From positions 5,518 to 69,517 of the forward strand of contig CAYLNK010000001.1 in NCBI GenBank assembly GCA_964384675.1: DNA of 64,000 bases, written 5' to 3'. Position numbers and translations under genes: made by a program. The first letter of the stretch is position 1; each line of letters begins with the position of its first letter. Source of the DNA: an uncultured Holophagales bacterium (lineage in GTDB: Bacteria; Acidobacteriota; Thermoanaerobaculia; UBA5066). Below the pieces are notes generated by a model. That model did no database searches and was not told the DNA's origin. It saw only the letters and a list, made by a program, of their open reading frames with translations. This document shows positions 3,128-40,882 of this stretch, piece after piece.

Positions 3128-3159
3128 CGCCGGCGAGACCGGACGGCGGCGGATGAAGA

Positions 3160-3181
3160 GGGCCGGGTCCGTACCCGGCCC
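3160..3181. terminator. Putative bidirectional intrinsic terminator hairpin between the convergent TerB-like gene and fumC.
   Basis: GGGCCGGGT-ccgt-ACCCGGCCC is a perfect 9-bp GC stem with a 4-nt loop. It lies in the 62-nt gap between two convergent stop codons. There is no strong T-tract, as is usual in high-GC genomes. Confidence 0.35.
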
Positions 3182-3189
3182 CCCGGCTC

Positions 3190-6476: not shown

Positions 6477-6520
6477 TCCTCGCGCGGCGGATGATAGGGG
6501 AGAGACGCCCCGAATGCCCG

Positions 6521-11513: not shown

Positions 11514-11557
11514 AGGACGAGAAGCTCGGGAAGGACGGCAAGCCGAAGCCGCCGAAA

Positions 11558-13402: not shown

Positions 13403-13474
13403 AGGGGCGACGGGAAGGGACCGTCCAGGCCGCTCGGGGTCGCGCCCGATCCTCCCCACGCGGCGCGGCCAGAT

Positions 13475-13488
13475 CGTTTGACCTCAAA
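13475..13488. promoter_or_regulatory. AT-rich palindromic motif cGTTTGAccTCAAAt, copy 1 of 3; putative operator about 90 nt upstream of the sps start.
   Basis: GTTTGA-CC-TCAAA(t) is an inverted repeat, AT-rich in a ~70% GC genome. It sits in the 171-nt intergenic region upstream of sps-susy. Near-identical copies are at 32279 and 35171. Confidence 0.4.
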
Positions 13489-13573
13489 TGAAATGGGCGC
13501 TAGCCTCTTCGGCGATGGAGGCGACCCACGGGGAGAGCGCCCGCCGGAATGAGCCGTCGCGGATCGGCGCCGC

Positions 13574-15745
13574 GTGACGTCCCGCGCGCTCCCCCCGCTC
13601 CGGATCCTGCTGCTGAGCGTGCACGGTCTGGTTCGGGGCCGTGAGCCGGAGCTGGGCCGCGACGCCGACACGGGCGGGCAGATCACCTACGTGCTCGAGC
13701 TCTCCCGGGCGCTGGGTCGACACCCGCGTGTGGCGCACGTCGACCTCGTCACCCGGCTGATCGAGGACGAGCGTCTCTCGGCCGACTACGCGCGGCCGTT
13801 CGAGGAGCTCGGGCCCCGCGCCCGCCTGGTCCGGCTCCCGTTCGGTCCCCGGCGCTACCTCCGGAAGGAGGTGCTCTGGCCGCACCTCGGGCAGCTCGTC
13901 GACCGATGCCTCGACTTCCTGCGCGAGCAGCCGACGCTGCCCGACGTCATCCACACCCACTACGCCGATGCCGGATGGGTGGGGAAGGAGCTGTCGCACC
14001 TCCTGGGGGTGCCTCTGGTCCACACCGGGCATTCGCTCGGACGCTGCAAGAAGAAACGGATGCTCGATGCCGGCCGGGCGGACGGAGCCCTGGAGAGGCA
14101 GTTCAGCTTCAGGCGCCGGTTCGCGGCGGAGGAGGAGGCCCTCGAGCAGGCCTCACTGGTCGTCGCCTCGACCCAGGACGAGGTGAGCCAGCAGTACGCG
14201 CTCTACGAGGCGTTCCAGCCGCGGCGTTGCACCGTCATCCCTCCCGGCGTCGACACGTCCCGCTTCCGCCCGCCCCAGGGTCGCGGCTCTCGGGGTCTGC
14301 CGTGGATCGACCGGTTCCTGTCCGAGCCCGACAAGCCGCTCCTCGTCGCGGTCGCTCGCCCCGCGCCGAAGAAGAACCTGTCGACCCTCGTCGCGGCGTA
14401 CGGAGAGGACCCCGAGCTCCAGGCGATGGCGAACCTGGCCGTCGTGGCGGGGACCCGGGACGACCTGACGCAGGCGGAGGAGCCGGCTCGCGGCGTGCTC
14501 CTCGAGCTCCTTCTCCTGATGGACGGGTACGACCTGTACGGCCACCTGGCGCTGCCGAAGCGACATGGGATGCGGGACGTTCCCGAGCTGTACCGGCTGG
14601 CGGCCGAAAGGGGTGGGATCCTCGTGAACCCCGCCCTCACGGAGCCTTTCGGGCTGACGCTCCTGGAGGCGGCGGCGAGCGGCTTGCCCGTCGTCGCGAC
14701 GCGGGAGGGCGGACCGCGGGAGATCGTCGCGAACTGCCGGAACGGGCTTCTGGTCGACCCCCTGGACCGGGAGGGCCTGCAGGCCGCGCTCAAGGACGCG
14801 CTCTCCGACGAAGTGCGCTGGCGCCGCTGGGCCCGGAACGGGTTGAAGGGGGTGCAGCGAACGTATACCTGGGACGGCCACGTCGAGAGCTATCTGAAGG
14901 CCTCCGATCGCGTGCTCCTGCGGGAGAGGAAGAGGGCTCGCCGGCGCGCCCACGCCGGAATCGGCCGCGCGGCCGCGGCGTGCCTCGTCGGAGCGGACCT
15001 CGTCCTCCTCACGGACATCGACGAGACCCTCCTCGGCGACGAGAAGGGTCTGGAGACCCTTCTCGACTGGCGGAGACGGGAGCAGGCCCGGGTGGTGTTC
15101 GGGGTCGCGACCGGCCGCACGCTCCGGCGTGCCCTCGCGATCCTCGAGGAGTGGAAGGTGCCGGCGCCCGACCTCCTGATCACGTCCGTCGGAACCGAGA
15201 TCCACTACGGACCCGACCTCGTTCCCGACGACAGCTGGACCAGGCACATCCGCCACCTCTGGCGACGGGACGCCATCGCGGGCGCGCTCGCGGGGACGGC
15301 GGGCCTCGAGCCGCAGGCCGACGAGAACCAGGGGGAGCTCAAGCTCAGCTACAACGTGGACGCGGCGCGCATGCCCTCCGTGGAGCGCCTGTACACGAGG
15401 CTGCGCGAGCGCGATCTCCTGGCTCGCCTCGTCTATTCGCAGGGCAAGTACCTGGACGTGATCCCGCTCCGGGCCGGCAAGGGACAGGCGCTCCGGTACC
15501 TGGCGTACCGGGAGAGCCTTTCTCCGCGCCAGTTCGTCGTCGCCGGGGACTCCGGAAACGACGCCGACATGCTCCTCGGTGACACCCGGGCGGTCGTGGT
15601 GGGCAACTACAAGGCGGAGCTCGAGCCCCTCCGCGGAAGCGAGCAGGTCTACTTCGCGTCGCAGCGGTACGCGCGCGGGATCCTGGAGGGACTGTCGTTC
15701 TACGGGGTCCTGGGATCGCCCGTGGAAGGTTGGGTGGCTCCGTGA
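13574..15745 (+). CDS. sps: Sucrose-phosphate synthase (GT4 domain) with a C-terminal sucrose-phosphatase-like HAD domain.
   Basis: 723 aa. The N-terminus LRILLLSVHGLVRGREPELGRDADTGGQITYVLEL and ...LTEPFGLTLLEAAASGLPVVATREGGP are characteristic of SPS. The C-terminus carries HAD motifs DIDETLLGD and GDSGNDADML (SPP-like). GTG start at 13574. Confidence 0.9.
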   Translation: MTSRALPPLRILLLSVHGLVRGREPELGRDADTGGQITYVLELSRALGRHPRVAHVDLVTRLIEDERLSADYARPFEELGPRARLVRLPFGPRRYLRKEVLWPHLGQLVDRCLDFLREQPTLPDVIHTHYADAGWVGKELSHLLGVPLVHTGHSLGRCKKKRMLDAGRADGALERQFSFRRRFAAEEEALEQASLVVASTQDEVSQQYALYEAFQPRRCTVIPPGVDTSRFRPPQGRGSRGLPWIDRFLSEPDKPLLVAVARPAPKKNLSTLVAAYGEDPELQAMANLAVVAGTRDDLTQAEEPARGVLLELLLLMDGYDLYGHLALPKRHGMRDVPELYRLAAERGGILVNPALTEPFGLTLLEAAASGLPVVATREGGPREIVANCRNGLLVDPLDREGLQAALKDALSDEVRWRRWARNGLKGVQRTYTWDGHVESYLKASDRVLLRERKRARRRAHAGIGRAAAACLVGADLVLLTDIDETLLGDEKGLETLLDWRRREQARVVFGVATGRTLRRALAILEEWKVPAPDLLITSVGTEIHYGPDLVPDDSWTRHIRHLWRRDAIAGALAGTAGLEPQADENQGELKLSYNVDAARMPSVERLYTRLRERDLLARLVYSQGKYLDVIPLRAGKGQALRYLAYRESLSPRQFVVAGDSGNDADMLLGDTRAVVVGNYKAELEPLRGSEQVYFASQRYARGILEGLSFYGVLGSPVEGWVAP

Positions 15746-18135
15746 TCGAGCCGCTGAGACGTTTCGCCGCCGAGCACCGCGACGCGTTCACCCAGCTCCT
15801 GGAAGGGCTCTTCGAGCCGGGCCGGCCGGTCCTCCTGCGGTCGGATCTCCTGCGGGCCTTCAGGACCGTCGAGCACGAGTACGCCCGCTGCGCCCTGGGC
15901 GGGACGGCGCTCCACGGTCTCGTGACGCGGGGGCAGGAGGTTCTCCTCAAGAGTCCCTGGGCGCTCTTCGCGCTGCGCGAGGCCGTCGGCCGCTGGCACT
16001 ACGTCCGCGTGCACCGGGAGAACCTCGTCCCGGAGCCGATCACCGCGACCGAGTTCCTCCGTTTCAAGGAGCACCTGGTCCTGTCGCCGGACGACGAGGC
16101 CTTCGAGCCGCTCGAGCTCGACTTCGCCCCGTTCGAGCGCGGCTTCCCGAAGCTGACCGAGGCGCGCTCGATCGGTCAGGGAGTCGCCTTCCTGAATCGG
16201 AAGCTGTCGAGCGACCTCTTCACCGACGGCGGTGAGGGACGGGAGAGGCTCCACGACTTCCTCGGCCTTCACGCGATAGACGGGCAGAGCCTGCTCCTGC
16301 TCGGGCCGTTCCCCTCCGTGTCGGAGCTGCAGGAAGCGCTCCGGGCCGCCCGGGAGGTGCTGGAGGGGCTCGATCCCGTGCTGCCGTGGGCCGAGGTGGC
16401 GGACCGGCTGGCCGGCCGCGGCTTCGCCCCGGGCTGGGGAGACACGGCGGGGCGGGCCGCCGAGACGATGGCGTTGCTCGTGGACCTCCTCGAAGCGCCG
16501 TCGCCCGACGCGCTGGAGCGATTCCTGGCCCGGATCCCGATGATCTCCCGTCTCCTCGTGCTGTCGCCGCACGGCTTCTTCGGCCAGGACGACGTGCTGG
16601 GACTGCCCGACACGGGCGGCCAGGTGGTCTACGTCCTCGACCAGGTGCGCGCGCTCGAGCGGGAGATGCGCGAGCGGCTCGCCCGCCAGGGCGTGGCCGT
16701 GGAGCCCCAGATCGTCATCGTGACGCGCCTGATCCCGGAGTCTCGCGGCACGACCTGCCACGAGCCGCTCGAGCGGGTCGCGGGCTGCCTGAGCACGCGG
16801 ATCCTGCGGGTCCCGTTCAGGAGGAGGAGCGGCGAGGTGGTCCGCCATTGGATCTCCCGCTTCGAAGTGTGGCCGTACCTGGAGCGCTTCGCGCGGGAGG
16901 TGGAGAACGAGGTGATCGCCGAGCTCGGAGGTCGGCCCGACCTGGTGGTCGGGAACTACTCCGACGGCAACCTCGTGGCGACGCTCATCGCCCAGCGCCT
17001 CGGGGTCACGCTGTGCACCATCGCGCACGCGCTCGAGAAGACCAAGTACCTGCTCTCCGCCCTCCACTGGAAGGAGATGGAGCCGCAGTACCACTTCTCC
17101 TGCCAGTACACGGCCGACCTCGTCGCCATGAACGCCTCGGACTTCATCATCGCCAGCACCTACCAGGAGATCGCCGGTACCGCCGACGCGGTGGGTCAGT
17201 ACGAGAGCTACCAGACGTTCACGATGCCCGGGCTGTATCGTGTCCGGGACGGCATCGACGTCTTCGACCCGAAGTTCAACGTCGTCTCGCCCGGCGCGGA
17301 CGCCGACGTCTACTTCTCGTTCCGCGAGGCCGACCGGCGTCTGCGCGGGCTGACGTCCCGCATCGAGGAGCTGGTCCTCGGGCACGACGCTTCCGGCGAC
17401 TGCCGGGGCGCGCTCGACGCGCCGGGCAAGCCGATCGTCTTCACCATGGCCCGGCTCGACCGGATCAAGAACCTCACCGGTCTCGTCGACTGGTACGGCG
17501 CCTCGCCGAGGCTCCGCTCTCTCGCCAACCTGCTGGTCGTCGGGGGGAGCATCTCCCCGGACGCCAGCGGGGATCGGGAGGAACGTGAGCAGTGCGAGCG
17601 GATGCACGAGCTCTTCGAGCGCCACGGTCTCGACGGGCAGGTGCGCTGGGTCGGGAAGCGGCTCCCGAAGCTGCTGGCCGGGGAGCTGTACCGGTGGATC
17701 GCGGACCGGCGGGGCGTCTTCGCTCAGCCCGCGCACTTCGAGGCCTTCGGCCTGACCGTGATCGAGGCGATGGCGTCGGGGCTGCCCATGTTCGCGACGT
17801 GCTACGGCGGGCCGTCCGAGATCGTCCAGCAAGGCCGGTCCGGCTTCCTCCTCGACCCGGACCGGGGTGCGGAGGCCGCCGACCAGATCGCCGCCTTCCT
17901 GGAGGACTGCGCCGCCGACCCGGCGAAGTGGGACCTCCTGTCCGCCGGCGCCCGGGCGCGGGTCGAGGAGCGGTACACGTGGAAGCGGTACGCCGAGCGG
18001 ATGATGACCCTCTCTCGCATCTACGGGTTCTGGAAGTTCGTGAGCCGCCTCGAACGGCAGGAGACGGTCCGGTACCTCGAGATGTTCCACCGGCTGCAGC
18101 TGCGACCCCTCGCGGCGGCCGTCCTCGAGTCGTGA
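15742..18135 (+). CDS. susA: Sucrose synthase.
   Basis: About 798 aa. LVLSPHGFFGQDDVLGLPDTGGQVVYVLDQVRALE...HFEAFGLTVIEAMASGLPMFATCYGGPSEIV is diagnostic of SuSy. GTG 15742 overlaps the sps stop TGA 15743-15745 (GTGA overlap). TTG 15730 is an alternative start. Confidence 0.9.
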   Translation: MIEPLRRFAAEHRDAFTQLLEGLFEPGRPVLLRSDLLRAFRTVEHEYARCALGGTALHGLVTRGQEVLLKSPWALFALREAVGRWHYVRVHRENLVPEPITATEFLRFKEHLVLSPDDEAFEPLELDFAPFERGFPKLTEARSIGQGVAFLNRKLSSDLFTDGGEGRERLHDFLGLHAIDGQSLLLLGPFPSVSELQEALRAAREVLEGLDPVLPWAEVADRLAGRGFAPGWGDTAGRAAETMALLVDLLEAPSPDALERFLARIPMISRLLVLSPHGFFGQDDVLGLPDTGGQVVYVLDQVRALEREMRERLARQGVAVEPQIVIVTRLIPESRGTTCHEPLERVAGCLSTRILRVPFRRRSGEVVRHWISRFEVWPYLERFAREVENEVIAELGGRPDLVVGNYSDGNLVATLIAQRLGVTLCTIAHALEKTKYLLSALHWKEMEPQYHFSCQYTADLVAMNASDFIIASTYQEIAGTADAVGQYESYQTFTMPGLYRVRDGIDVFDPKFNVVSPGADADVYFSFREADRRLRGLTSRIEELVLGHDASGDCRGALDAPGKPIVFTMARLDRIKNLTGLVDWYGASPRLRSLANLLVVGGSISPDASGDREEREQCERMHELFERHGLDGQVRWVGKRLPKLLAGELYRWIADRRGVFAQPAHFEAFGLTVIEAMASGLPMFATCYGGPSEIVQQGRSGFLLDPDRGAEAADQIAAFLEDCAADPAKWDLLSAGARARVEERYTWKRYAERMMTLSRIYGFWKFVSRLERQETVRYLEMFHRLQLRPLAAAVLES

Positions 18136-18231
18136 GGAAGCCGGCGCGGGCCCTGGGGCGGGGCGAGGTCGAGGTGGACGATCACTGACGAGCCTCGAGC
18201 CGCGGCAGTAGCCACGGGTGCCGCGGCGGCC

Positions 18232-19992
18232 GTGGCTCGCCTGGGGAATCGCCTGGCGCCCTTCGTGGTCCGCCTCCGGAAGGAGGCGCGCCGCTTCCCG
18301 GCGGTACCGCTCGTCCTGATCGGGGCGGGCTGCGGGCTCGTCGCGGTGCTCTTCCACCACGCGCTCCAGCTGGGGCGAGCTCTCCTCATCGACGCCGCGC
18401 TGGCGTCCCCGCGCCCGCTCGTGAGAGCCGCGCTGGTCCTGCTGCTCCCCACGGCGATGGCGGGGCTCCTGGCCCTGGCGGTCCGGCGGCTCTCGCCCGG
18501 CGCCGGCGGCGGCCTGGCTCTCGTCCGGCGCGCTTACGCGCAGCGCCCCGAGATCCTGAACGGCCGCACGTTCGTCGGAGCGTTCCTCGCCAACCCGCTG
18601 TCGCTCGGCGCGGGGACGCCGCTCGGTCCGGAGGGACCCACGGTCGTCCTGACCAGCACGTTCAGCTCGGGGATGGCCCGCCTCGTCGGCCTCCCCTCGC
18701 GGGCCGTCCGGGGGATGATCCCGATCGGGACCGCGGCCGGCATCTCCGCGATCTTCAACACGCCGATCACCGGTGTGGTGTTCGGCCTGGAGGAGGTCGT
18801 GGGAAGCGCGTCCCGCGGGGTCCTGGGCGGCTCGCTGGTGGCCGCGGTCGCGGCGGCCGTGGTGCAGCGTCAGGTGCTGGGCGGGGAGCGCCTTCTCCCC
18901 GCTTCGGCGGCCACGTGGAAGGACCCCCGGGAGCTCGTCGGCTTCGCTCTCGTCGGTCTCGTGGCCGGCGGTGTGGCCGGCTTCGTGCCGCGTCTCGTGC
19001 CGTGGCTCCGGTCCGTCCTCGAGACGTCGCTGGCCCGCCTCGGGCGTTCCGCGGTGGTGGTGCGCGGCTGCGTCGCCGGGCTCGGCGTCGGTCTGCTGGG
19101 GCTCGTCTCTCCCGAGACGCTCGGCACCGGCTACCGGCCGATCTCGGCCTGGCTGACCGGAGGCGGGACCGCCGGTCTTGCGGTCGTCGCCTTCCTCGCC
19201 AAGTCGGCCGGCCTGGTCGTCGCGCTCGCCGGGCCTCTCGTCGGAGGTGTCTTCGCGCCGTCTCTCTTCATCGGGGCTTCACTGGGGGCCGCCACGGGAC
19301 ACGCCGCTCATCAGCTCTTCCCGGGCGCGCCGATCGATCCGGCGGCGTACGCCCTGGTGGGGATGGGCGCCTTCTTCGCGGGCTTCCTGAGGACGCCTCT
19401 GGCCGCGGTCCTCATCGTCTTCGAGCTGACCGGCGACTACGCCCTCGTCCTGCCCCTGATGCTCGCCGTGGCGATCTCGAGCGTCGTGGCGCGGCGAATC
19501 TCGCGACGCACGCTCGTGGAGCAGCAGCTCGAGGACGAGGGGGTCCACGCGGCGCCTGCCGGAGGCGACCCGTTGTCGTCCGTCCTCGTCTCCGAGGTGA
19601 TGTCCCGCGCGCCGGTGACGGTAAGGCGCGACCAGACGCTCCTCGAGGCGGCCCGGAGCGTCGCGGGAACCAACCACCCGGTCTACCCCGTCGTGGACGA
19701 CGGAGGCTGGTGCCTGGGCCTGCTCGAGGGAAGGGACCTCGACGCCGCGGCCCGGGAGGGGCGCCTGGAGAGCCTCGTCGTCGGGGACGTGATGCGCGGG
19801 GTCCCGGTCTTCGCGACGCCGGAGGAGCCGGTGGACCGGATCTCCCTCCGGCTCGGCACGCACCACGTCACCCGCTGTCCTGTGGTCGCGTCCCACGAAG
19901 AGCCTCGGCTCGTCGGCTTCCTCGGCCCGTCCGATCTCCTGCAGGCGAGGGTGAAGGGCACGTCGGAGATCGGCGACTCGACCCTCTCGTGA
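18232..19992 (+). CDS. ClC-family chloride channel / Cl-(F-)/H+ antiporter with a C-terminal CBS-domain pair.
   Basis: Motifs GPEGP and GGVFAP. There are multiple TM helices. The C-terminal tandem CBS domains include VSEVMSRAPVTVRRDQTL and VGDVMRGVPVFATPEE. GTG start at 18232. Confidence 0.85.
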   Translation: MARLGNRLAPFVVRLRKEARRFPAVPLVLIGAGCGLVAVLFHHALQLGRALLIDAALASPRPLVRAALVLLLPTAMAGLLALAVRRLSPGAGGGLALVRRAYAQRPEILNGRTFVGAFLANPLSLGAGTPLGPEGPTVVLTSTFSSGMARLVGLPSRAVRGMIPIGTAAGISAIFNTPITGVVFGLEEVVGSASRGVLGGSLVAAVAAAVVQRQVLGGERLLPASAATWKDPRELVGFALVGLVAGGVAGFVPRLVPWLRSVLETSLARLGRSAVVVRGCVAGLGVGLLGLVSPETLGTGYRPISAWLTGGGTAGLAVVAFLAKSAGLVVALAGPLVGGVFAPSLFIGASLGAATGHAAHQLFPGAPIDPAAYALVGMGAFFAGFLRTPLAAVLIVFELTGDYALVLPLMLAVAISSVVARRISRRTLVEQQLEDEGVHAAPAGGDPLSSVLVSEVMSRAPVTVRRDQTLLEAARSVAGTNHPVYPVVDDGGWCLGLLEGRDLDAAAREGRLESLVVGDVMRGVPVFATPEEPVDRISLRLGTHHVTRCPVVASHEEPRLVGFLGPSDLLQARVKGTSEIGDSTLS

Positions 19993-20091
19993 CGAGGCCG
20001 TGAGACTCGTGGGCCGTGGTGTAGCATCTGATGAACAACCGTTTGGGCACGAACGATCGCGGCGGAGCCGCAACTCGGGAGGAGCCGTCCC

Positions 20092-26706: not shown

Positions 26707-26716
26707 AGAGCCTCTC

Positions 26717-27775
26717 TCAGGAGTCGAGCCTTCGGCCCGTCGCGGCGTCGAACCAGTGGAGGCTGGCGCGCGGGATCCGGACCGAGAGCGTTCCGTTGGA
26801 GGAGCGGATGCGCGTCAGGGCCCGGAGGCGGAGCCGCCCGATCCGGATCGTCAGGAGCGTGCGGTCCCCCTGTGGCTCCTCCAGCTCCACCGTGCCCTCG
26901 AGCCCGTCGTCGAGCGGCCCCTCTCCCACCTCCACGTCCTCGGGACGGATCCCGGCGCAGAGCTCCGTCCCGTCGCGCAGCCCCGGCGGGAGCGGAAGGC
27001 GTGTCCCTTCCGAGACGAACTCCGTTCCTTCGGCCCTTCCCCTCCAGACGGTCATCCGCGGTGACCCGACGAAGGTAGCGGTGAAGAGGTCGGCCGGCCG
27101 CCGGTAGAGCTCCTCGGGCGGGGCGGCCTGGAGCACCTTTCCGTCCTTCAGCGCCAGGACCTCGTCGGCGAGGCTCATCGCCTCCGACTGGTCGTGTGTG
27201 ACGTAGAGGACGGTGGCACCGAGCCGCCGGAAGAGCGACTTCAGCTCGGCGCGCATCTCCTCGCGAAGGAGGGCATCGAGGTTCGAGAGCGGCTCGTCCA
27301 TCAGGTAGAGGCGCGGCCGCCGGATCAGTGCGCGTCCGACGGCCACCCGCTGCTGCTGCCCTCCCGACAGCTCGGCGGGGTGGCGCGAGAGAAGGCCCGT
27401 CAGGCCGAGGAGCTGCGCCGTCTCGGCGACCCTCTGCGCGATCTCCGCGCGCGGCAGGCGCCGGACCTCGAGCGCGAGCGACAGGTTGCGGGACACCGTC
27501 AGGTGCGGGTAGAGGGCGTAGCTCTGGAAGACGAAGCCGACGTCGCGTGCGCCGGCATCGACGCCGTCGAGGGGGCGGCCGTCGAGCGTCAGCGTCCCCG
27601 ACGTCGCGGTCTCCAGGCCGGCCACGACCCGCAGCAGCGTCGTCTTCCCGCACCCCGACGGGCCGAGGAGCGCGAGGACCTTCCCTTCTGCGGCTCGGAA
27701 CGAAACGCCGTCCAGGGCGCGTGTCCCGCCCGCGAACACCTTGGTCAGGCCGGTGCCGACGAGCTCGCCCGGCAC
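26717..27775 (-). CDS. Sugar ABC importer ATP-binding protein (MalK/UgpC family).
   Basis: Walker A LLGPSGCGKTT, signature LSGGQQQRVAVGRAL, Walker B LYLMDEPLSNLD, and a C-terminal MalK-type regulatory/TOBE domain. Proposed GTG start (MPGELVGTGLTKVF...) lies 2 nt after the upstream permease stop. The longer track ORF (to 28405) overlaps the permease. Confidence 0.85.
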   Translation of the reverse strand: MPGELVGTGLTKVFAGGTRALDGVSFRAAEGKVLALLGPSGCGKTTLLRVVAGLETATSGTLTLDGRPLDGVDAGARDVGFVFQSYALYPHLTVSRNLSLALEVRRLPRAEIAQRVAETAQLLGLTGLLSRHPAELSGGQQQRVAVGRALIRRPRLYLMDEPLSNLDALLREEMRAELKSLFRRLGATVLYVTHDQSEAMSLADEVLALKDGKVLQAAPPEELYRRPADLFTATFVGSPRMTVWRGRAEGTEFVSEGTRLPLPPGLRDGTELCAGIRPEDVEVGEGPLDDGLEGTVELEEPQGDRTLLTIRIGRLRLRALTRIRSSNGTLSVRIPRASLHWFDAATGRRLDS

Positions 27776-27777
27776 GC

Positions 27778-28623
27778 TCAGCCCTTCACCGCGCCGCGCG
27801 TCAGCCCGCTCGCGATGCGCCGCTCGAAGAGGAGGACGAGGAGGACGAGCGGCACGGTCGCCACGACGACCGCCGCCGAGAGCTGTCCCCAGGGGACCTC
27901 GAACGTCGAGGAGCCCGTGACGCTCGCGATCCCGGCCGTCACGGTCTTCCTCGCGTCGCGGGTCAGGAACGTCAGCGCCAGCAGGAACTCGTTCCACGAG
28001 TAGATGAAGACGAGGATCGCCGCCGTGACCGCGGACGGCGCGGCGAGCGGCAGGTGGATCCGGAAGACGCGCCGCGCGGGACCGAGCCCGTCCAGGACGG
28101 CGGCCTCGTCGACCGCGCGGGGGATCTGGCGGAAGCCGCTCTCGAGGATCCAGACCGAGAGCGGGAGGTTGAGCAGCGCGTACGGGAGGATCAGGGCGAT
28201 CGGGTTGTTCAGCCACCCGAGCGCCCGCACGGCCTCGTACGTCGGGAAGAGGAGGAGGATCGGAGGAACGAACGCGAGCGCCAGGAGCGCCACGAGCCAG
28301 CGCTCCCGCGCCCGGACCGTGGCGCGGGTGAGCGCGCCGGCCGCCAGGGCGCCCAGGGTCACCGACAGCAGCGTCGACACCGCCGCAACCACCGCGCTGT
28401 TCCATAGGTACGTCGCGAACGGCTTCCTCGTGAACAGCGCCTCGACGTGGCGGAGCGTGGGCGGGCTCGGCAGGTAGACGGTCGGCACGCGGGTGATCTG
28501 GGCGTCCGGCTTCAACGCCGTCAGGACCTGCCAGACGCCGGGCGCCAGGCTCCAGACCACGAGGAGCCCGACGGCGAGGCCGGGAAGGAGCCGGCGCACC
28601 TTCCCTTCCGCAACGGACGTCAC
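27778..28623 (-). CDS. ABC sugar importer permease (MalG/UgpE-like).
   Basis: About 281 aa with 6 TM segments. EAA loop DEAAVLDGLGPARRVFRIHLPLAAP. GTG start (MTSVAEGKVRRLLPGLAVGLLVVWSL) overlaps the upstream stop (GTGA). The remainder of track ORF 27778..32055 is artefact. Confidence 0.85.
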   Translation of the reverse strand: MTSVAEGKVRRLLPGLAVGLLVVWSLAPGVWQVLTALKPDAQITRVPTVYLPSPPTLRHVEALFTRKPFATYLWNSAVVAAVSTLLSVTLGALAAGALTRATVRARERWLVALLALAFVPPILLLFPTYEAVRALGWLNNPIALILPYALLNLPLSVWILESGFRQIPRAVDEAAVLDGLGPARRVFRIHLPLAAPSAVTAAILVFIYSWNEFLLALTFLTRDARKTVTAGIASVTGSSTFEVPWGQLSAAVVVATVPLVLLVLLFERRIASGLTRGAVKG

Positions 28624-30635
28624 GTCCGCCTCCAGCGGGGTCGGGCGAGCCGCACCACCGCGCCCGCCAGGAGGGCCGCGGGCAGGAAGCCGTTGACCGC
28701 GATCCAGGCTCCGTGCGCGGGGTCGAGGTAGCGGAAGTAGGTCTGGAACGCGTAGAGAGAGACCGTCTCGGTGGAGCCGCCCGGGCCGCCGCCGGTCATC
28801 ACGTAGACGATGTCGAAGGCGCCGTACGCCTGGACCGCGCGGAAGAGCGCCGCCGCCAGGATCGACGGCGAAAGGAGCGGCAGGACGACGTGCCAAAAGC
28901 GCGGCCATGCGCCGAGCCCGTCCATCCGCGCGGCCTCCAGCACCTCGCCCGGGATCCCCTGCAGGCCGGCGAGGATGATCAGCGCGACGAATGGCGTTGT
29001 CTTCCAGACGTCGGCCACCACGAGGGCCGCCATCGCGGTGCCGGGCGAGCTCAGCCAGGCGATGGGCCGCGAAACGAGACCGAGGCGTCCGAGGAGGTCG
29101 TTCGCCACGCCGAAGGAATCGTTGAAGATCCAGGCCCACGCCAGGGCCATCACCGCGGTGGGGAGCGCCCAGGGCAGCAGCGTGAGGGCCCGTACGAGTC
29201 CCCGGCCGCGGAAGCGAAGGTGGAGGAGCAGCGCGATCCCGAGGCCGAGGAGCGTCTCGAGCCCCACCGACGCCGTCGTGAAGAGCGCGGTGTTCCGGAG
29301 CGACGAGAGGAACCGCCCGTCGCGCCACGGCCGGAGGGCTCCGCTCTCGGCCCCGCCCGGCGCCAGGAGGAGACGCGTCTCCCGGGCCGCGGCGCCGAGG
29401 GCCTCGGACGGGGTCGCGAGACCCGCGAGGGCGGCGCTCAGGTGTCGCTGGAGGATGTCCGACGCCATCGCGTAACGGGGGATCACGGGGCGCGCCAGCG
29501 CCGCCTCGTGGATCCGCAGAAGCTCGGGAAGGAACGGATTCGCGGCGAGGAGCGTCGGGTCGCGGTACGCCTCGGCGAGCGCGGGGGCGTAGCCCGTCTC
29601 GCGACAGAGAGCCCGCTGGCCGGGGAGCGACACCACGTGACGGATGAAGTCCATCGCGAGCCGGGGGTGACGGCTGAAGCGTGAGACGCCGAGGCCCCAG
29701 CCGCCGAGAGTCCCCGCGCTCTCGCCTCCCGGCGTGTGCACCATCGGGACGACCCCGACCTTGCCGGCCACCGGCGAACCGGGCGCCTGGGCGAGGCGCC
29801 AGACGTACGGCCAGTTGCGCAGGAAGACCGCGCGGCCGTCCTGGAAGAGCCGCCGGCTCTCGTCCTCCTTGTAGGCGGTCACACCGGGCGGGCTGATCGG
29901 GTCCTGCCCGGAGCGGCACCTGCGGAGGAACTCGAGCGCCTGGGTGGCCTCCTTCCGGTCGAGGCCGACCTCCAGCGTGTCGGGGTTGACCCAGAAGCCT
30001 CCGAAGCCGCGCAGGACCTCCTGGTAGTCGCACACCAGCCCCTCGTACTGGCTTCCTTGCCACACGAAGCCCCAGAGCGCGGGTGGCTTCTGGAGGGCGC
30101 GCGCGGCCCGCTCGAGGTCGTCGAACGTGAGCGGCGGGGGGAGCCCGGCGGTCTCCAGGAGGTCTCGGCGATAGAAGAGCACGCCGACGTCGGTGCGCAC
30201 CGGGATGCGGTACAGGTGCCCGCGATAGCGGCCCGCGTCCACCGCCGCGGGCAGGAGCCTCGCGAGGTCGCCGGCGGGGAAATCCGCCTCCAGCGGGAGC
30301 AGCCACCGCGCGAACTTGGGCGTCCACGTCACGTCCATGTAGACGAGGTCGAGGGACTCGTCGCCCGCCACGAGCGAGGACGTGTAGAGGTTCTCGCGCA
30401 GGTCCGTGGCGTTCGGACCCTCCACGACGTCCACCGCGACACCGGGACGCGACGCCTCGAAGTCCTTCGCGATCCGGACCCAGACGTCCCGGTCGCTCGC
30501 GAGGACCAGGAACGAGAGGCGGCGCGTCTCGCCGGGCGGCCCGTCCGCGCGGACGGGGAGGGCCGCTGCCACGATTGCCGCGGCGGCCAGGAGACGCGTC
30601 GCGAGTCGGCGAACGGTCGTGGCGCCGGGCGTCAT
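28620..30635 (-). CDS. Natural fusion of a family-1 extracellular solute-binding protein to a MalF/UgpA-type permease (671 aa).
   Basis: N-terminal signal peptide MTPGATTVRRLATRLLAAAAIVAAALPVRA and an SBP_bac_1-like domain of ~420 aa run uninterrupted into permease TM2-TM6. The permease part carries the EAA loop EAARMDGLGAWPRFWHVVLPLL. The usual TM1 and first periplasmic loop are absent. Confidence 0.75.
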   Translation of the reverse strand: MTPGATTVRRLATRLLAAAAIVAAALPVRADGPPGETRRLSFLVLASDRDVWVRIAKDFEASRPGVAVDVVEGPNATDLRENLYTSSLVAGDESLDLVYMDVTWTPKFARWLLPLEADFPAGDLARLLPAAVDAGRYRGHLYRIPVRTDVGVLFYRRDLLETAGLPPPLTFDDLERAARALQKPPALWGFVWQGSQYEGLVCDYQEVLRGFGGFWVNPDTLEVGLDRKEATQALEFLRRCRSGQDPISPPGVTAYKEDESRRLFQDGRAVFLRNWPYVWRLAQAPGSPVAGKVGVVPMVHTPGGESAGTLGGWGLGVSRFSRHPRLAMDFIRHVVSLPGQRALCRETGYAPALAEAYRDPTLLAANPFLPELLRIHEAALARPVIPRYAMASDILQRHLSAALAGLATPSEALGAAARETRLLLAPGGAESGALRPWRDGRFLSSLRNTALFTTASVGLETLLGLGIALLLHLRFRGRGLVRALTLLPWALPTAVMALAWAWIFNDSFGVANDLLGRLGLVSRPIAWLSSPGTAMAALVVADVWKTTPFVALIILAGLQGIPGEVLEAARMDGLGAWPRFWHVVLPLLSPSILAAALFRAVQAYGAFDIVYVMTGGGPGGSTETVSLYAFQTYFRYLDPAHGAWIAVNGFLPAALLAGAVVRLARPRWRRT

Positions 30636-30644
30636 GGCGCAACC

Positions 30645-32258
30645 CTACACGGCGGTCCCGGCAGCCGGCACCAGGTGGATCGTCCGGGTCGGGAACGCGA
30701 ACGAGCTGCCCTCCGACTCCACGATCGCCATCAGCTCGAGGAGCATCGCCTGGCGGATCCCCAGGAACTCCCCCCAATCGGTCGTGAGGAACCAGGCCAT
30801 GACGAGGACGTTCAGCGAGGAGTCGCCGAACCCCTGGAACGCCACGGTCACCGAATCGGGCCAGATCTTGGGGTGCTCGCGCAGCGCCGATTCGATCCGG
30901 GCGAGGATCCGGCGCATCTGGTCGGAGCTGGTGTCGTAGGTCAGGCCGATGTCCACCGCCAGCCGCAGCCGGTCGCGCTCGGCGAACGACTCGATGCGCT
31001 GCTCGGCGAGCCGTCCGTTCGGGATGGAGACGAGCGTGCGGTCCAGGGTGCGGATCCGCGACGACCGCAGGCCGATCCGTTCCACGACCCCGAAGACGTC
31101 TTCGACCTTCACGAGGTCTCCCTCGCGGAATGGCTGGTCGACCCCGATGGAGACGGAGCCGAAGAGGTGCTCCACCGTCTTCTGCGCCGCCAGCGCGAGG
31201 GCGAGGCCGCCGATTCCGAGCCCGGCGAGGAGGCTCGCCACCGGATAGCCCAGGGTCGCGAGGGCCGAAACGACGGCGAGCGCCGAGAGCAGGACCTTGG
31301 CGATCCGGGTCGAGAGAGGCACGAGCCCGCGGACCGAGGGCCGCTGCGCGGCCCACGTCGAGCCGGTGACCGCCTGGCCGGTGAGGTCCACCGTACGGAG
31401 CGCGGCCCAGAAGACCACGAGGAGGAGGCCGGAGACGCGGAGGCTCCCGACGAAACGCTGTGCCGGGGCGTAGAGCGAAAGGGCGGCGAGCGGAAACGGA
31501 ACGACGACGAGGCTCCAGGCGAGCGCCAGGGGGCGCCCCAGGCGTGCGAGGAGCGTGTCGTCGAGCGTCGACTCGGACCGCGCGGCCATGCGCCCGAGCA
31601 GCGTGGTCGTGACTCTCCCGAGCGGCAGTCCGGCGCCGTAGCTCAGGAGGAGGACGAGCGGGAGCGCGAGCCACTGCCACCACAGGAGCTCGCCCGGGCC
31701 CGGCCTGAGGAGCGGCGCCGGGAGGTGCTCGAGCACCCACCGGTTCCCCACGGCGCCGTACTGGACGTCGATCCGGCCGACGGTGGCACGCGTGAAGAGC
31801 CAGCGGGCTCCGTCCGGTCCCGAGCGCCTCACGAGCCTCACGGGCTGACGGACCCCGCCGGCGAAGGGGAGCGTGGTCAGCTCCTCGACGCCCGCCGGCA
31901 GCCCGTCGTCTTCTCGGCCCTCCGGGAGCGCCGAGAGGTCGTCGGGCTCGAGCCACACGTGGGCGTCCAGAACCGCTTTCAGCCGGCGCGCCAGCTCGGG
32001 GCCCCGGGACACGTCCGCCGCGGGAAGCTCGAGGTATCGGGCCGCCTCCTCCCACCGTCCCGCCCGCGCCAGCTCGAGATACGAGATCACGGCGGCACGC
32101 GGGGAATCGGGCGAAGGGCGGTCCGCGGGCTCGGTCGCGGCTGGCGTGGGCTCGGGAGGACCTGCCGCCCGGAGGGGCGGCCCGAGGATCACGGCGAGCG
32201 CCAGGACGCTCGCGACGCGCACGCGGCCATGGCGGGGGAGCCGAACGGGGGGCGTCAT
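30645..32258 (-). CDS. Mechanosensitive ion channel, MscS family, with an N-terminal periplasmic domain.
   Basis: 537 aa. Signal/TM then periplasmic region. TM helices lead into the MscS core (...GIGGLALALAAQKTVEHLFGSVSIGVDQPFREGDLVKVEDVFGVVERIGLRSSRIRTLDRTLVSIPNGRLA...). Confidence 0.85.
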   Translation of the reverse strand: MTPPVRLPRHGRVRVASVLALAVILGPPLRAAGPPEPTPAATEPADRPSPDSPRAAVISYLELARAGRWEEAARYLELPAADVSRGPELARRLKAVLDAHVWLEPDDLSALPEGREDDGLPAGVEELTTLPFAGGVRQPVRLVRRSGPDGARWLFTRATVGRIDVQYGAVGNRWVLEHLPAPLLRPGPGELLWWQWLALPLVLLLSYGAGLPLGRVTTTLLGRMAARSESTLDDTLLARLGRPLALAWSLVVVPFPLAALSLYAPAQRFVGSLRVSGLLLVVFWAALRTVDLTGQAVTGSTWAAQRPSVRGLVPLSTRIAKVLLSALAVVSALATLGYPVASLLAGLGIGGLALALAAQKTVEHLFGSVSIGVDQPFREGDLVKVEDVFGVVERIGLRSSRIRTLDRTLVSIPNGRLAEQRIESFAERDRLRLAVDIGLTYDTSSDQMRRILARIESALREHPKIWPDSVTVAFQGFGDSSLNVLVMAWFLTTDWGEFLGIRQAMLLELMAIVESEGSSFAFPTRTIHLVPAAGTAV

Positions 32259-32278
32259 CGCCCCACCTTAGCGCGACC

Positions 32279-32294
32279 TTCGTTTGACCTCAAA
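32279..32294. promoter_or_regulatory. Palindromic motif tCGTTTGAccTCAAAC, copy 2 of 3; about 25 nt upstream of the mscS start codon and just downstream of marR.
   Basis: Perfect inverted repeat GTTTGA-cc-TCAAAC, AT-rich, in the 67-nt mscS upstream region. Confidence 0.4.
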
Positions 32295-32325
32295 CCATCA
32301 CCGGCTCGGCTTCGCGACCGGCACC

Positions 32326-32871
32326 TCAGCCCGCGCCGGAGCCCTTCTCGTCGCGACGCTTTCCGGCGTCCCTCCGAAGCCCCCGTTCCAGGGACCCGGC
32401 GAGCGACGCCAGCACCTCGCTCGTGACGGCGATACTCTCGGCGGGAATACGGGCGAGGGCGCTCTCGACGGCCGCCTCGATCGTTCCGGCCGAGCGCCTG
32501 TCCACCGCACGCCCCTTGGCGGTCAAGCTGAAGAGCGCCAGGCGGCCATCCCGGGGATCGCCCTTTCGCTCGACGAAACCGCCCTTCTCCAGGCGCGCGA
32601 GGACCCCGCTGAGCGTGCTGGGGTGAAGGAGGATGGTCCGGGCGAGCCGCCCGGCCGGGATCCCCGGGAAGCTCCCGATGATCCGGATGGCCAGCCGCTG
32701 CGGCCCGGTGACGCCGACGGAGCGCAGCATCCGTTTGGAGCTTCGTTGCAGGCCGTGGTCGAGCGCCCACAGCAGCCGCAGGAACTCGAGGGCGCTCCCG
32801 AGCGGCGGGACGTCCCGCTCCGCGGCGGACGTCCGCCGGCGTGCGCCTGGGGGGGACTTCAGGGACGACAT
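32326..32871 (-). CDS. MarR-family transcriptional regulator.
   Basis: About 181 aa. Winged-HTH region ...LRLLWALDHGLQRSSKRMLRSVGVTGPQRLAIRIIGSFPGIPAGRLARTILLHPSTLSGVLARLEKGGFVERKGDPRDGRLALFSLTAKG... The 5' end of track ORF 32326..35478 is artefact. Confidence 0.8.
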   Translation of the reverse strand: MSSLKSPPGARRRTSAAERDVPPLGSALEFLRLLWALDHGLQRSSKRMLRSVGVTGPQRLAIRIIGSFPGIPAGRLARTILLHPSTLSGVLARLEKGGFVERKGDPRDGRLALFSLTAKGRAVDRRSAGTIEAAVESALARIPAESIAVTSEVLASLAGSLERGLRRDAGKRRDEKGSGAG

Positions 32872-34994
32872 GGCGCGAGGATTTTTGCACGCCGGATCGA
32901 GCTCGTTGCCCTGAGGGCGACCCCGGCGATTCCCGCTGCGACGGCCCACCAGCCGGGGAGGCTGAGCGGATCTCGAGGGGGCGCTGGCGGAGCGATCCGC
33001 CGCGGCAGACGCTCGAACACCACGAGCGCAGGAGGCTGCCCAACCTCTCCCAGCGGCCGGCCAACGCCGCCGGGGAAACGTCCCTCGAGGACGGGAAGCA
33101 GGTCCCTCTCGTCGTACAGCAGGACCGCGGCCGGCGGCGTGAGATCCAGGCGCCCGCTCAGGACGTCCTGGCGGGTCGCGTCGCGGCCGTTCTGGTCCGC
33201 CCCGAAGAAGCGGAACGGATGCTCGCTCCAGCGGAACTCGTGGCTCACGAGGTAGACCCGAGAGCCGGAGGGGAGAGCATCGACGTATCGCGCTCCCCGG
33301 GCGCGGGGACCTTCGCCGCTGCTGGCGAACCCGACGTAGACCTCCCAGTTCTGGATTCCGAGCGGGACCAGACCTGCGACCAGGGCCGCGACGCCGAGCC
33401 GCCGTGAGCTCGGGCCGTCGGGCAGGAGACCGGACACGGCCTGAACCGCCCCCAGCGCCGCGAGGAGAGACACCGCCGGAAGGGCGATGTTCAGGTGCGG
33501 CCAGTACGGCGGATCGGCCGTGAGGACGCCTCCCAGGAAGAGCGTCAGAAAGACCCACAGGACGGCGACCGCGCGCGACAAGTTCCTCGGCCGGGCCAGG
33601 GCGAAGCCGGTTCCGAGGACGAGGAAGATCGAGGCCGGCGCACTGACCATCGGACGTCGCAGGCTGAAGTGGGGGCTTCCGTCGCCGAACAGGTGGAACG
33701 TCAGGAAGGTGTCGCGCGCCTGGTAGAGGAGGACCTCTAGGACGCTGCCCGCCTCGTACTTCGCCATCGTGTGCGAGAGGACGTACGGGTTCCAGATCGC
33801 GACCTCGGTGCCGCGCCCGGCGAAGGATGCGAAATCGGTGGCCGGGATCGCGATCTTGGGACCGAAGACGACCAGCGTCGTCGTCGCGAGAAGCGTCCAG
33901 CCGCGCCAGGCCCGCCTGAACCCGCCCCGGTCGAAGAGCGCCTGCCAGAGGGCGGTGGCGGCGACCAGTACCGGCCCGACCCGGCTGGAGTCGTAGTTGA
34001 ACAGTCCGAACGACAGAACGGCTCCCGAGAGCGCGAACGCGAGCGGCGCCCCGGTCCTGAGCCCCGCGATGAGGAGCACCAGCGCGAGCGTGAGGCACAG
34101 CGTGGCGATCGGCCCGAACAGCGTACGGCTGAAGTGGATGTGGGTGTAGCTGATGGCGAGCAGCCCGGATGCGACGAGCCCTTCGGCTCGCCCGAACAGG
34201 GCCCGGCCGAGGAGGTACAGGATGGGGATGGTCGCGGTCCCGGCGAGCACCGAAGGCATGACGAGCCCGTAATAGTCCCGACCGAACAGGCGCATGCCGA
34301 GCGCGATCACCTGGTGCATGGAGGCGGGGTGCTGCGAGGCGGCCAGGCCCAGCCACCGGCCGGGCTCCGTCGCCATCATCTCGAGCGTGACGTTCCCCAT
34401 CAGGGCGATGTCGGGATGGACATGCGCCGGCAGGTCGGCGACGTCGTGGCAGCGGAGCCAGAAGCCCGCGAGCGTGACGACGGAGACGAGGCCCCACTCC
34501 CACGCCGGATGGCCCACGACCCCGAGGAAGCGCCGGTCTCTCAGGGCGATAGGGAGCAGGAGCAGGACGATCGCCGCCAGCCAGAGCCACCTCACTCCGG
34601 GTGACTCGCCGGAGCGGACGAAGAGCGTGACGGAGCTGGCGTAGCAAAGCCCCGAGGCCGCGAGCGCCGCCGCGATGGCGGGGCTCCGCGCGCCGCAGAT
34701 CGCCTGCGTCGGGACAGTCAGCGAGCCGATCGTCCCGTGCGCCTGAAACGCTCTGGTGGCCGCGGCGACTCCGGCCAGGAGAAGGAGAGAGGCCGCCGTG
34801 TAGCGGGGCGGCCAGTCCCAGGTCTGGGTGTCCCGGTTCCGGGTCAGGAGCTCGCCCGTGAACAGGTACTGGGCCACGAACGCGAGCGCCAGGGCGACCC
34901 CGATGAGCAACGGCCGCCGCCGGTCGGGGCCCGGCCCCACGGCAGCCAGGATGTTGCCCGGTGCGAAGACCGTCGCCTCGTCGCTGCTCCGCAC
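32859..34994 (-). CDS. Large polytopic membrane protein, putative GT-C-fold glycosyltransferase (ArnT/PMT/GT39-like), with a C-terminal periplasmic domain.
   Basis: 711 aa, at least 12 hydrophobic helices, with an Arg/Asp-rich first loop. It overlaps the marR start by about 13 nt. The family assignment is weak. Confidence 0.45.
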   Translation of the reverse strand: MRSSDEATVFAPGNILAAVGPGPDRRRPLLIGVALALAFVAQYLFTGELLTRNRDTQTWDWPPRYTAASLLLLAGVAAATRAFQAHGTIGSLTVPTQAICGARSPAIAAALAASGLCYASSVTLFVRSGESPGVRWLWLAAIVLLLLPIALRDRRFLGVVGHPAWEWGLVSVVTLAGFWLRCHDVADLPAHVHPDIALMGNVTLEMMATEPGRWLGLAASQHPASMHQVIALGMRLFGRDYYGLVMPSVLAGTATIPILYLLGRALFGRAEGLVASGLLAISYTHIHFSRTLFGPIATLCLTLALVLLIAGLRTGAPLAFALSGAVLSFGLFNYDSSRVGPVLVAATALWQALFDRGGFRRAWRGWTLLATTTLVVFGPKIAIPATDFASFAGRGTEVAIWNPYVLSHTMAKYEAGSVLEVLLYQARDTFLTFHLFGDGSPHFSLRRPMVSAPASIFLVLGTGFALARPRNLSRAVAVLWVFLTLFLGGVLTADPPYWPHLNIALPAVSLLAALGAVQAVSGLLPDGPSSRRLGVAALVAGLVPLGIQNWEVYVGFASSGEGPRARGARYVDALPSGSRVYLVSHEFRWSEHPFRFFGADQNGRDATRQDVLSGRLDLTPPAAVLLYDERDLLPVLEGRFPGGVGRPLGEVGQPPALVVFERLPRRIAPPAPPRDPLSLPGWWAVAAGIAGVALRATSSIRRAKILAPCRP

Positions 34995-35170
34995 GCCGGG
35001 TCAGCTGGCCGTCACGTGGAATTGGCCGCGCCGTCTCAGATGACCCCTGCGGGACGCGGTGCGACGCTCGCCCGCTGCCAGGAGCGGAGCGAACCGGGCC
35101 GGAGCGAAGGGAGCCGTCACCGGGTATGGCACGTTCTCGATCTCTCCTGGCGCGCGATCGTAGGCGCATT

Positions 35171-35186
35171 TCGTTTGATGTCAAAC
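35171..35186. promoter_or_regulatory. Palindromic motif TCGTTTGAtgTCAAAC, copy 3 of 3, in the divergent promoter region between the GT-C-like gene and the MpgS-like gene.
   Basis: Perfect inverted repeat GTTTGA-tg-TCAAAC, about 90 nt upstream of ATG 35276. Confidence 0.4.
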
Positions 35187-35275
35187 TATCGAAGGTCCTC
35201 TGCGGTCCGGTCCGGTCGCGGCGCGCGGTTCCGAACGGGATTCGCCCGGTCGCCCGGGCCGGGCCACAATCAGGC

Positions 35276-40787: not shown

Positions 40788-40882
40788 CACGGCGCGAACG
40801 GCGGCCCGACCGTCTGCGGTTCCTGCGGGACGCCCGTCCCGCACCCGGCTCGATTGTAGGCCAGTCGTCCGGCGGCCCCGCC

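Follow-up and report, generated by a model that had tools for sequence, protein, structure and literature searches.

A short A/T-rich palindrome, present in three copies in a 64-kb stretch of DNA from an uncultured Holophagales bacterium (Acidobacteriota, Thermoanaerobaculia), most likely serves salt- and drought-protection genes as the binding site of a MarR-family regulator, as judged from sequence comparison and gene context. The stretch (contig CAYLNK010000001.1 of GenBank assembly GCA_964384675.1, forward-strand positions 5,518 to 69,517) was analyzed over its whole length and is called the window here. The initial annotation of this DNA had proposed that one dimeric regulator, possibly an adjacent MarR protein, governs an osmoadaptation regulon. 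The co-occurrence of palindrome and MarR gene, the similar cargo in relatives, and a further Thermoanaerobaculia locus (L112; related loci are designated by L and a number) all support such a proposal, and we consider it likely that the palindrome is the operator of the MarR encoded at 32326-32871. Conservation in related genomes, also raised at the outset, is seen as well, the palindrome recurring with MarR orthologs across Acidobacteriota and Myxococcota.

The three copies lie where they were first reported, with the core TTTGACCTCAAA at sites a and b and TTTGATGTCAAA at site c (Table 1). The exact core TTTGANNTCAAA (TTTGA-NN-TCAAA) has three matches in the window compared with 0.00 expected from 100 dinucleotide-preserving shuffles, and CGTTTGANNTCAAA with at most one mismatch retrieves the same three sites, both strands counted, compared with 0.02 expected. 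Allowing two mismatches in the core yields no extra copy, in agreement with the earlier statement that the window holds no others. The contrast between an AT-rich motif and GC-rich DNA also stands: the GC content of the window is 0.67-0.75, which makes the motif conspicuous. Two details of the original description need amendment. The perfect 6+6 inverted repeat does not extend to site a, which ends in TCAAAT rather than TCAAAC and has perfect arms of 5+5, and, while the core is as described, the conserved element is longer, an 8-2-8 palindrome with A/T-rich flanks.

All three copies are intergenic. Sites b and c fall in gaps of independent Joint Genome Institute (JGI) gene calls for the same organism, site b in the 67 bp between the MarR stop and the MscS start and site c in a divergent region with the PMT2-MarR unit on one side and a GpgS-like gene on the other; site a lies between the end of an ABC exporter gene and the start of the sucrose-phosphate synthase (SPS) gene. 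The distances first given to the start codons also hold, at 86 nt for the GTG of SPS, 25 nt for the ATG of MscS, and 91 nt for that of the GpgS-like gene. The flanking sequences show no relation among the three copies beyond ~24 bp, which indicates a short site and not a dispersed repeat. Chance, a generic dispersed repeat, or the end of a mobile element could be invoked given the small number of sites in the window, but these explanations have a practically negligible probability in view of the shuffling result, the unrelated flanks, and the retention of the site at orthologous promoter positions across phyla.

Table 1. Coordinates of operators, promoters, genes, and RNA elements in the window and in related loci (positions in L-numbered loci refer to those loci).
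Feature	Position	Strand	Description
ABC exporter	11246-13402	+	precedes site a
Operator a	13474-13491	.	TCGTTTGA-CC-TCAAATGA; core 13477-13488; weight-matrix score 34.1
Promoter a	13478-13506	+	-35 TTGACC (13478-13483), 17-nt spacer, -10 TAGCCT (13501-13506); towards SPS-SuSy-ClC
Target operon a	13574-19992	+	SPS-SPP fusion 13574-15745; sucrose synthase (SuSy) 15730-18135; ClC with CBS domain 18232-19992 (Pfam)
Target operon b	26717-32258	-	MscS 30645-32258; substrate-binding protein-permease fusion 28620-30635; permease 27778-28623; MalK-like ATPase 26717-27775 (Pfam)
Promoter b	32265-32293	-	-35 TTGAGG (32293-32288), 17-nt spacer, -10 TAAGGT (32270-32265); towards MscS
Operator b	32280-32297	.	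TCGTTTGA-CC-TCAAACCA; core 32283-32294; score 28.0
Target operon c (PMT2-MarR)	32326-34994	-	PMT_2-family glycosyltransferase 32859-34994; MarR-family regulator 32326-32871 (Pfam); gene calls overlap
Promoter c	35157-35184	-	-35 TTGACA (35184-35179), 16-nt spacer, -10 TACGAT (35162-35157); towards PMT2-MarR; leader ~156 nt
Operator c	35171-35188	.	TCGTTTGA-TG-TCAAACTA; core 35174-35185; score 32.2
GpgS-like glycosyltransferase	35276-36496	+	406 aa; 91 nt from operator c
~232-aa conserved protein	36524-37222	-	weak PF05552 match (mechanosensitive-channel transmembrane helix); last gene of MGS_GT operon
nhaA-I RNA (Rfam RF03057)	40796-40846	-	44 bits, gathering score 37; leader of Na+/H+ exchanger gene 39480-40739 (-)
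L044 open reading frame	2796-4136	+	446 codons, begins 30 nt past operator; Trehalose_PPase aa 34-214 and MarR domain aa 313-381, in frame
Dual-promoter palindromes	L003 948, L004 949, L005 9937, L006 6801, L007 9934, L008 9360, L012 9934, L112 16810, L001 6910, L085 1853

A probable operator merged with promoters

Across 21 unique core-perfect sites from the window and its relatives, the element is an A/T-rich 8-2-8 palindrome of 18-22 bp, T(C/A)GTTTGA-NN-TCAAAC(G/T)A, set in A/T-rich flanks within DNA of roughly 70% GC. T at position -2 and A at position +15, neither of which was used in selecting the sites, are found in 81% of these sites. One half-site coincides with the -35 hexamer of a sigma-70-type promoter close to consensus, and its partner occupies the first part of the spacer. 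At sites a, b, and c alike, a TTGACA-like -35 and a TAnnnT-like -10 are separated by a spacer of 16-18 nt, and these sites are the only three matches in the 64 kb to TTGAC(N)/TTGAGG-N16-18-TAnnnT; in a consensus scan, promoter c is the sole promoter-like site between 30000 and 37000. The palindrome is centered at about -30 relative to the inferred start sites. More widely, a -10-like hexamer follows at a spacer of 16-18 nt in 25 of 37 unique strong sites, compared with 0-10 of the 37 at six control spacings. The layout of promoter a is also found ahead of PfkB-SPS-SuSy genes in L011, L007, and L112, and the position of promoter b, at or over the 3' end of the MarR gene, recurs in L011, L073, L057, L105, L106, L107, and L110.

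The MscS ATG lies 6 nt past the -10 hexamer of promoter b, so that the MscS mRNA is probably leaderless. In an Rfam scan, none of the leaders of these three units matched a known RNA element, the sole match in the window being elsewhere. Downstream of promoter a, a 20-codon open reading frame (ORF), MEATHGESARRNEPSRIGAA (13515-13577, +), begins 8 nt past the -10, and its TGA overlaps the SPS GTG start (GTGA, 13574-13577); this could reflect translational coupling from a leaderless mini-ORF, or chance.

Given this merging of elements, promoter architecture alone might account for the palindrome, as two overlapping divergent -35 hexamers (TTGACC / TTGAGG) with A/T-rich UP-like flanks and no dedicated factor. 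A -10-like hexamer does occur at 16-18 nt both ways in L003-L008, L012, L112, L001, and L085, and all three consensus-like promoters of the window are palindrome sites. However, the second half-site is perfect also at one-way promoters (window a, b, and c, L011, L007-1639, L105, L106, and L107), and the conserved G at 0, T at -2, and TTTGA rather than TTGACA exceed the needs of a -35 hexamer. TCAAA, moreover, is missing from 11 of 26 consensus-like promoters and follows only 25 of 743 TTGACN occurrences, and the motif goes with a single MarR subfamily and a single functional class of genes. We therefore regard an explanation by promoter architecture alone as highly improbable.

Sites of other known regulators were also considered. 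CRP/FNR proteins have the consensus TTGAT-N4-ATCAA or TGTGA-N6-TCACA; a site of this type was rejected, because TTGA and TCAA stand 2 bp apart in 21/21 unique core sites as opposed to 6 bp. The LexA/Cheo box, HAIR, and IHF were set aside on spacing or orientation, by general comparison with their consensus sequences.

The palindrome and its cargo in related loci

We compared ~110 related loci, most of them fetched through MarR. A genome scan with MarR provided 15 ortholog loci at 41-67% identity, from Thermoanaerobaculia, Holophagales, other Acidobacteriota, Polyangia, and Labilithrix, together with 5 distant-paralog loci; a metagenome scan with a subfamily alignment added 80 more, and five loci (L109-L113) were fetched via the GpgS-like protein, independently of MarR. 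In 7 genome loci a perfect core precedes the MarR match by 30-68 nt; in L011 it comes shortly after MarR, and in L001 it stands ahead of a GT20-MarR operon. The 5 distant-paralog loci have no perfect core. With a softened weight matrix, >30 sites score above 20, compared with 0 in five local-composition shuffles. Scores >18 are reached in 14% of the 160-nt windows just upstream of MarR and in 0.29% of 3809 controls, an enrichment of ~48-fold (93 loci), and none of 6 control loci scores above 15. The upstream sites are centered 55-62 nt ahead of the codon that aligns with residue 24 of the window MarR. In closer relatives (61-72% identity) the palindrome is found at the 3' end of the MarR gene or overlapping it, with TTGAC(A/G)-17-TAnnnT, which is the arrangement of site b. 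Calls of coding and intergenic sequence from ORFs and third-position GC were dropped in favor of independent gene calls, since at 70% GC spurious N-terminal extensions cross the sites and make such calls unreliable.

In ten of these loci the palindrome appears to be shared by two promoters (Table 1). At these dual sites, one 12-bp palindrome supplies two back-to-back -35 hexamers (TTGAGG / TTGACC, overlapping in the central 2 bp), with a -10-like hexamer 17-18 nt from each; in the Thermoanaerobaculia-type loci, one promoter is directed to MarR and the other to an OmpA-lipoprotein/ClC unit. The MarR ATG or GTG lies 6-7 nt past the -10 in L003-L008, L012, and L112, where the MarR mRNA is a probable leaderless transcript.

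The genes behind the motif-bearing promoters of relatives, confirmed by Pfam, are of similar kinds to those of the window. They include PfkB-SPS-SuSy(-ClC) in L011 and L007, the former repeating the gene order of target operon a, a membrane-anchored GT20 (OtsA-like) gene in L001, L085, and L057, and Na+/H+ exchangers in L007 and L042, as well as ClC, Usp, an OmpA-family lipoprotein, and a LuxR-type response regulator. In L044, an ORF that joins trehalose-phosphatase and MarR domains follows the operator (Table 1) and is either an enzyme-regulator fusion or two genes without an intervening stop; its divergent side carries a DUF5752 gene and then a GT20 (OtsA-like) gene.

Among the loci fetched independently of MarR, the Thermoanaerobaculia locus L112 has three strong sites and presents the regulon of the window in another gene order: one site lies upstream of a small-ORF/MscS operon, one at the TTGACG-17-TACGAT promoter of PfkB-SPS-SuSy-GpgS, and one between OmpA-ClC and MarR. 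In L113 the palindrome covers the -35 immediately ahead of the GpgS-like gene, and in L109 a single site precedes a TPR-ClC unit. L110 has sites before an amylase-HAD-GpgS operon, before a glycosyltransferase operon by TrkAH, and at the stop codon of MarR, facing ClC. Both the palindrome and a MarR gene are missing from L111. Independent gene calls put every one of the 8 sites of the GpgS-anchored loci in an intergenic gap. In L110, TrkA and TrkH (K+ uptake) occupy 6478-8986 (-) between the glycosyltransferase operon and ClC-MarR, and a moderate site (19.5) just downstream of TrkA faces the glycosyltransferase operon.

In the window, genes were annotated with Pfam, NCBIfam, and the JGI gene calls, which place the gene junctions of target operon b 9 nt apart or overlapping and have the 3' end of the PMT_2 gene overlap the MarR start. 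The gene downstream of site c on the plus strand, labeled MpgS-like at first, is better described as GpgS-like: the best models are those of glucosyl-3-phosphoglycerate synthase (NF040724, 315 bits, below the 700-bit cut-off), and its homologs are named GpgS by JGI. Site c had been placed in a divergent promoter upstream of this gene; the location holds, but the clean promoter faces PMT2-MarR instead. The GpgS-like gene is nonetheless probably a member of the regulon, a view that derives from the operators upstream of the gene or its operon in L112, L110, and L113 and not from the geometry in the window.

The MarR protein and the mode of regulation

The window MarR, of 181 aa, matches PF12802 (2.8e-11) and PF01047 (1.6e-10), both above curated cut-offs, and its AlphaFold monomer model (pLDDT, the predicted local distance difference test score, 90.3) has the canonical MarR topology, with H84-96, E100-104/E112-116, and disordered basic tails. 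The top Foldseek matches in the PDB are all MarR proteins, for example DNA-bound FabT (6jbx, E 3e-8). Its structural and sequence neighbors are ordinary MarR proteins, the structural matches at <=30% identity and the best sequence matches to solved members at E of about 1e-16 to 1e-13, and the NCBIfam matches (HpaR, OhrR, FabT, and others) are weak and far below cut-off. The subfamily comprises 399 matches at E <= 1e-5, with at least 120 clusters at ~50% identity or more; it is almost entirely metagenomic and bears generic names only, with no protein named EctR or CosR among the 120 best homologs. Across 35 subfamily members there is almost no variation in the recognition helix, HPSTL(T/S)G..RLE, or in the wing, DPRDGRR, and this fits a conserved half-site. 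Two contigs encoding this subfamily, L013 and L015, are labeled as Klebsiella pneumoniae and Enterobacteriaceae metagenome-assembled genomes (MAGs) and have 73-74% GC; they are probably mis-binned or mislabeled.

Variation of the operator with the protein was also considered. No other palindrome was found enriched ahead of MarR in the 80 metagenomic loci (the best, GCACCG-N3-CGGTGC, was in 7 loci), and a co-evolution of operator and helix from TTTGA to TTGG was rejected, most TTGG sites being hybrids and the helix being identical in both groups. In one Archangium MAG (L010, 7021), TTGGA-TA-TCCAA stands upstream of GT20-MarR at the position orthologous to the L001 operator, and the MarR recognition helix is altered (DPGTVSA compared with HPSTLTG), a possible single case of operator-protein co-variation.

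As with other MarR-family operators, the palindrome sits on the promoter of the MarR gene or its operon, at site c and in many loci. The position of site c over the -35 facing PMT2-MarR implies autoregulation, and this MarR probably regulates itself. We infer that this MarR binds the palindrome, that it represses rather than activates, and that the signal is osmotic. In the mechanism that we propose, a MarR homodimer would bind the 18-22 bp wTTTnGTTTGA-NN-TCAAACnAAAw, its two 8-bp half-sites being about one helical turn apart. The bound protein would cover the -35 hexamer (TTGACC, TTGAGG, or TTGACA), block sigma region 4, and keep otherwise strong promoters off. A signal tied to osmotic, ionic, or desiccation stress would lower the affinity for DNA and free three units together, namely (a) SPS-SPP, SuSy, and ClC; (b) leaderless MscS with ABC uptake; and (c) PMT2-MarR, the last release amounting to negative autoregulation.

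The preference for repression follows from near-consensus promoters needing no activator and from the site centers near -30. The MarR might instead bind and activate, or act dually, for example by recruiting RNA polymerase at some promoters: SlyA and RovA are MarR-family proteins that act positively, 12 of the 37 strong sites are without a recognizable -10 at the expected spacing, and site c, ~97 nt from the GpgS-like start, has a spacing more typical of upstream activation. We consider activation or dual action improbable, however, since a site centered at about -30 spans the -35 hexamer and spacer, a position at which a bound protein would normally shut out polymerase, since the promoters come close to consensus as they are, with a 17-nt spacer, and since the functional analogs EctR1 and CosR are repressors.

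A different factor could also bind a real operator, for example an ArsR-type HTH_5/HTH_20 protein, the MarR then being a mere regulon member. ArsR/SmtB proteins too bind inverted repeats; an ArsR-type gene lies directly downstream of MarR in L003-L007, L012, and L112 (17481-17789 in L112), often with a second copy nearby, and another is found near the site at L112-1282. Against this, no ArsR homolog was detected in the 64-kb window or in L001, L011, L044, L057, L073, L085, and L105-L107, all of which bear strong sites, and L111 has an ArsR gene and no site. Of the 36 strong-site loci, 7 contain ArsR and 34 contain MarR, a comparison biased by the MarR-based fetching of all but five loci, and the palindrome lies on the promoter of the MarR gene or operon in many lineages, the usual signature of MarR autoregulation. 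The ArsR-type protein was rejected as an unlikely cognate factor, being missing from most site-bearing loci, and we give little credence to another factor in general.

Several observations weigh against the assignment of the palindrome to this MarR and its regulon. The near-universal presence of MarR in strong-site loci owes something to the same biased sampling, and every MarR gene of one Thermoanaerobaculia clade has an ArsR-type gene downstream, so that MarR is not the sole nearby regulator there. The perfect core is found in only 9 of the 80 metagenomic loci, and 23 of the 41 MarR-anchored loci of at least 5 kb have no site above 19; together these figures imply that the operator is remote, degenerate, or different in many lineages, mainly in the soil clade. 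In the window, no recognizable promoter leads from site c towards the GpgS-like gene. The regulon, finally, mixes solute synthesis with a release valve, MscS; in Escherichia coli, MscS is induced at high osmolarity, which fits its place in the regulon without proving it.

The probable osmoadaptation island and comparison with known systems

Other genes of the window lie between or beside the parts of the regulon. A 2204-aa protein with PKD, CARDB, and TIG repeats (20092-26706, +) is encoded between them, convergent with the MscS-ABC operon; the protein is probably located at the cell surface and has no obvious link to the palindrome. The nhaA-I RNA leads an operon that contains, besides the Na+/H+ exchanger, a 50-aa ORF, a HAD phosphatase, a GT2/MGS-type glycosyltransferase, and the ~232-aa membrane protein. 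This RNA belongs to a validated class of Li+-responsive riboswitches (PMC9646797). No MarR operator was found ahead of the nhaA-I/Na+/H+ exchanger operon in the window, so that the island has two separate layers of ion- or osmo-responsive control. Relatives of the ~232-aa protein are encoded in L109 (11307-12011), L110 (4314-5009), L111 (18504-19205), and L112 (11260-11958); its gene is convergent to the GpgS-like gene in the window, L109, L110, and L112, and in L111 an Mrp antiporter cluster intervenes.

Classical autoregulated MarR-family repressors act by steric exclusion of RNA polymerase, and E. coli MarR, OhrR, MexR, and HucR answer phenolics, oxidants, or urate and control efflux or detoxification. 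The window system resembles these in its winged-helix fold, in a palindrome of ~16-20 bp over the core promoter, and in a regulator gene adjacent to or inside the unit; it differs in that a half-site doubles as the -35, in that one palindrome serves two promoters in several genomes, and in its osmoadaptation cargo. GbsR, OpuAR, and OpcR of Bacillus subtilis are MarR-superfamily repressors of osmoprotectant synthesis and uptake, of a different subfamily, with choline or related ligands and different operators, and from Firmicutes.

The closest functional likeness, drawn from published descriptions, gene context, and operator geometry, is to EctR1 and CosR. In Methylotuvimicrobium (Methylomicrobium) alcaliphilum 20Z, EctR1, a homodimer of the MarR family, represses ectABC-ask and is autoregulated, and its operator is an A/T-rich pseudo-palindrome with 8-bp half-sites and a 2-bp gap that overlaps the -10 of the distal ect promoter (PMC5924519). 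The window elements are likewise 8-2-8 A/T-rich palindromes over the core promoter, that of the regulator's own gene included; unlike the EctR1 site, they cover the -35 and spacer, and the operator sequence differs. The EctR1 site reportedly reads TATTTAGT-GT-ACTATATA. EctR genes adjoin ect clusters in Proteobacteria and Planctomycetota, and the cargo of EctR1 is ectoine, whereas the present system belongs to Acidobacteriota and Myxococcota and its cargo is sucrose, trehalose, and glucosylglycerate-type synthesis with ClC, MscS, and Na+/H+ exchangers. CosR of Vibrio cholerae and Vibrio parahaemolyticus is a MarR-type direct repressor of several unlinked operons for compatible-solute synthesis and transport, for which no operator consensus is defined and which is not autoregulated in V. 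parahaemolyticus (bioRxiv 10.1101/845297). Control of a multi-operon regulon, as opposed to a single operon, is a proposed feature shared with CosR; the presence of the palindrome, in most lineages, on the promoter or operon of the regulator itself is not shared, the phyla differ, and the ectoine, betaine, BCCT, and ProU systems that CosR targets are different from the cargo here. The Pfam-annotated neighborhoods contain no ect or BCCT genes, and hence do not have the character of EctR/CosR neighborhoods.

Full-text searches returned no earlier account that ties a MarR to SPS or sucrose synthase or that describes a regulon of this kind in Acidobacteria, and no osmoregulatory transcription factor or operator is described for Acidobacteriota or Myxococcota in the searchable literature. 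The regulon proposed here for osmoadaptation in uncultured Acidobacteriota and Myxococcota appears not to have been described before; its mechanism, an autoregulated MarR repressor with a palindromic operator, is not new in kind. A more far-reaching proposal is possible but doubtful, namely that the MarR subfamily is a cross-phylum osmostat in which the half-site is the -35, repressor and sigma factor compete, and one palindrome can gate two promoters. Such an osmostat would sense ionic strength directly or a pathway intermediate (a sugar phosphate), as hinted by the joined trehalose-phosphatase and MarR domains of the L044 ORF, and would coordinate sucrose, trehalose, and glucosylglycerate synthesis with fluxes through ClC, the Na+/H+ exchanger, and MscS.

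If true, the osmostat would give these phyla their first defined osmoregulatory factor, complete with operator and regulon, and would offer a tractable way to learn what MarR proteins of the EctR/CosR type sense. The signal of EctR/CosR was still described as unresolved as of 2026 (PMC13342039), and the present system would provide a second, independent case of a MarR-type osmoregulator on which sensing can be addressed. The operator-plus-promoter module of ~45 bp could act as a stress-responsive genetic part. Soils and sediments prone to drying and salting harbor abundant Acidobacteriota (Thermoanaerobaculia among them) and Myxococcota, and the operator model lets regulon members be predicted in their MAGs. 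One island unites sucrose and glucosylglycerate-type solutes, trehalose, ClC, a Na+/H+ exchanger, MscS, TrkAH, and a Li+/Na+-type riboswitch.

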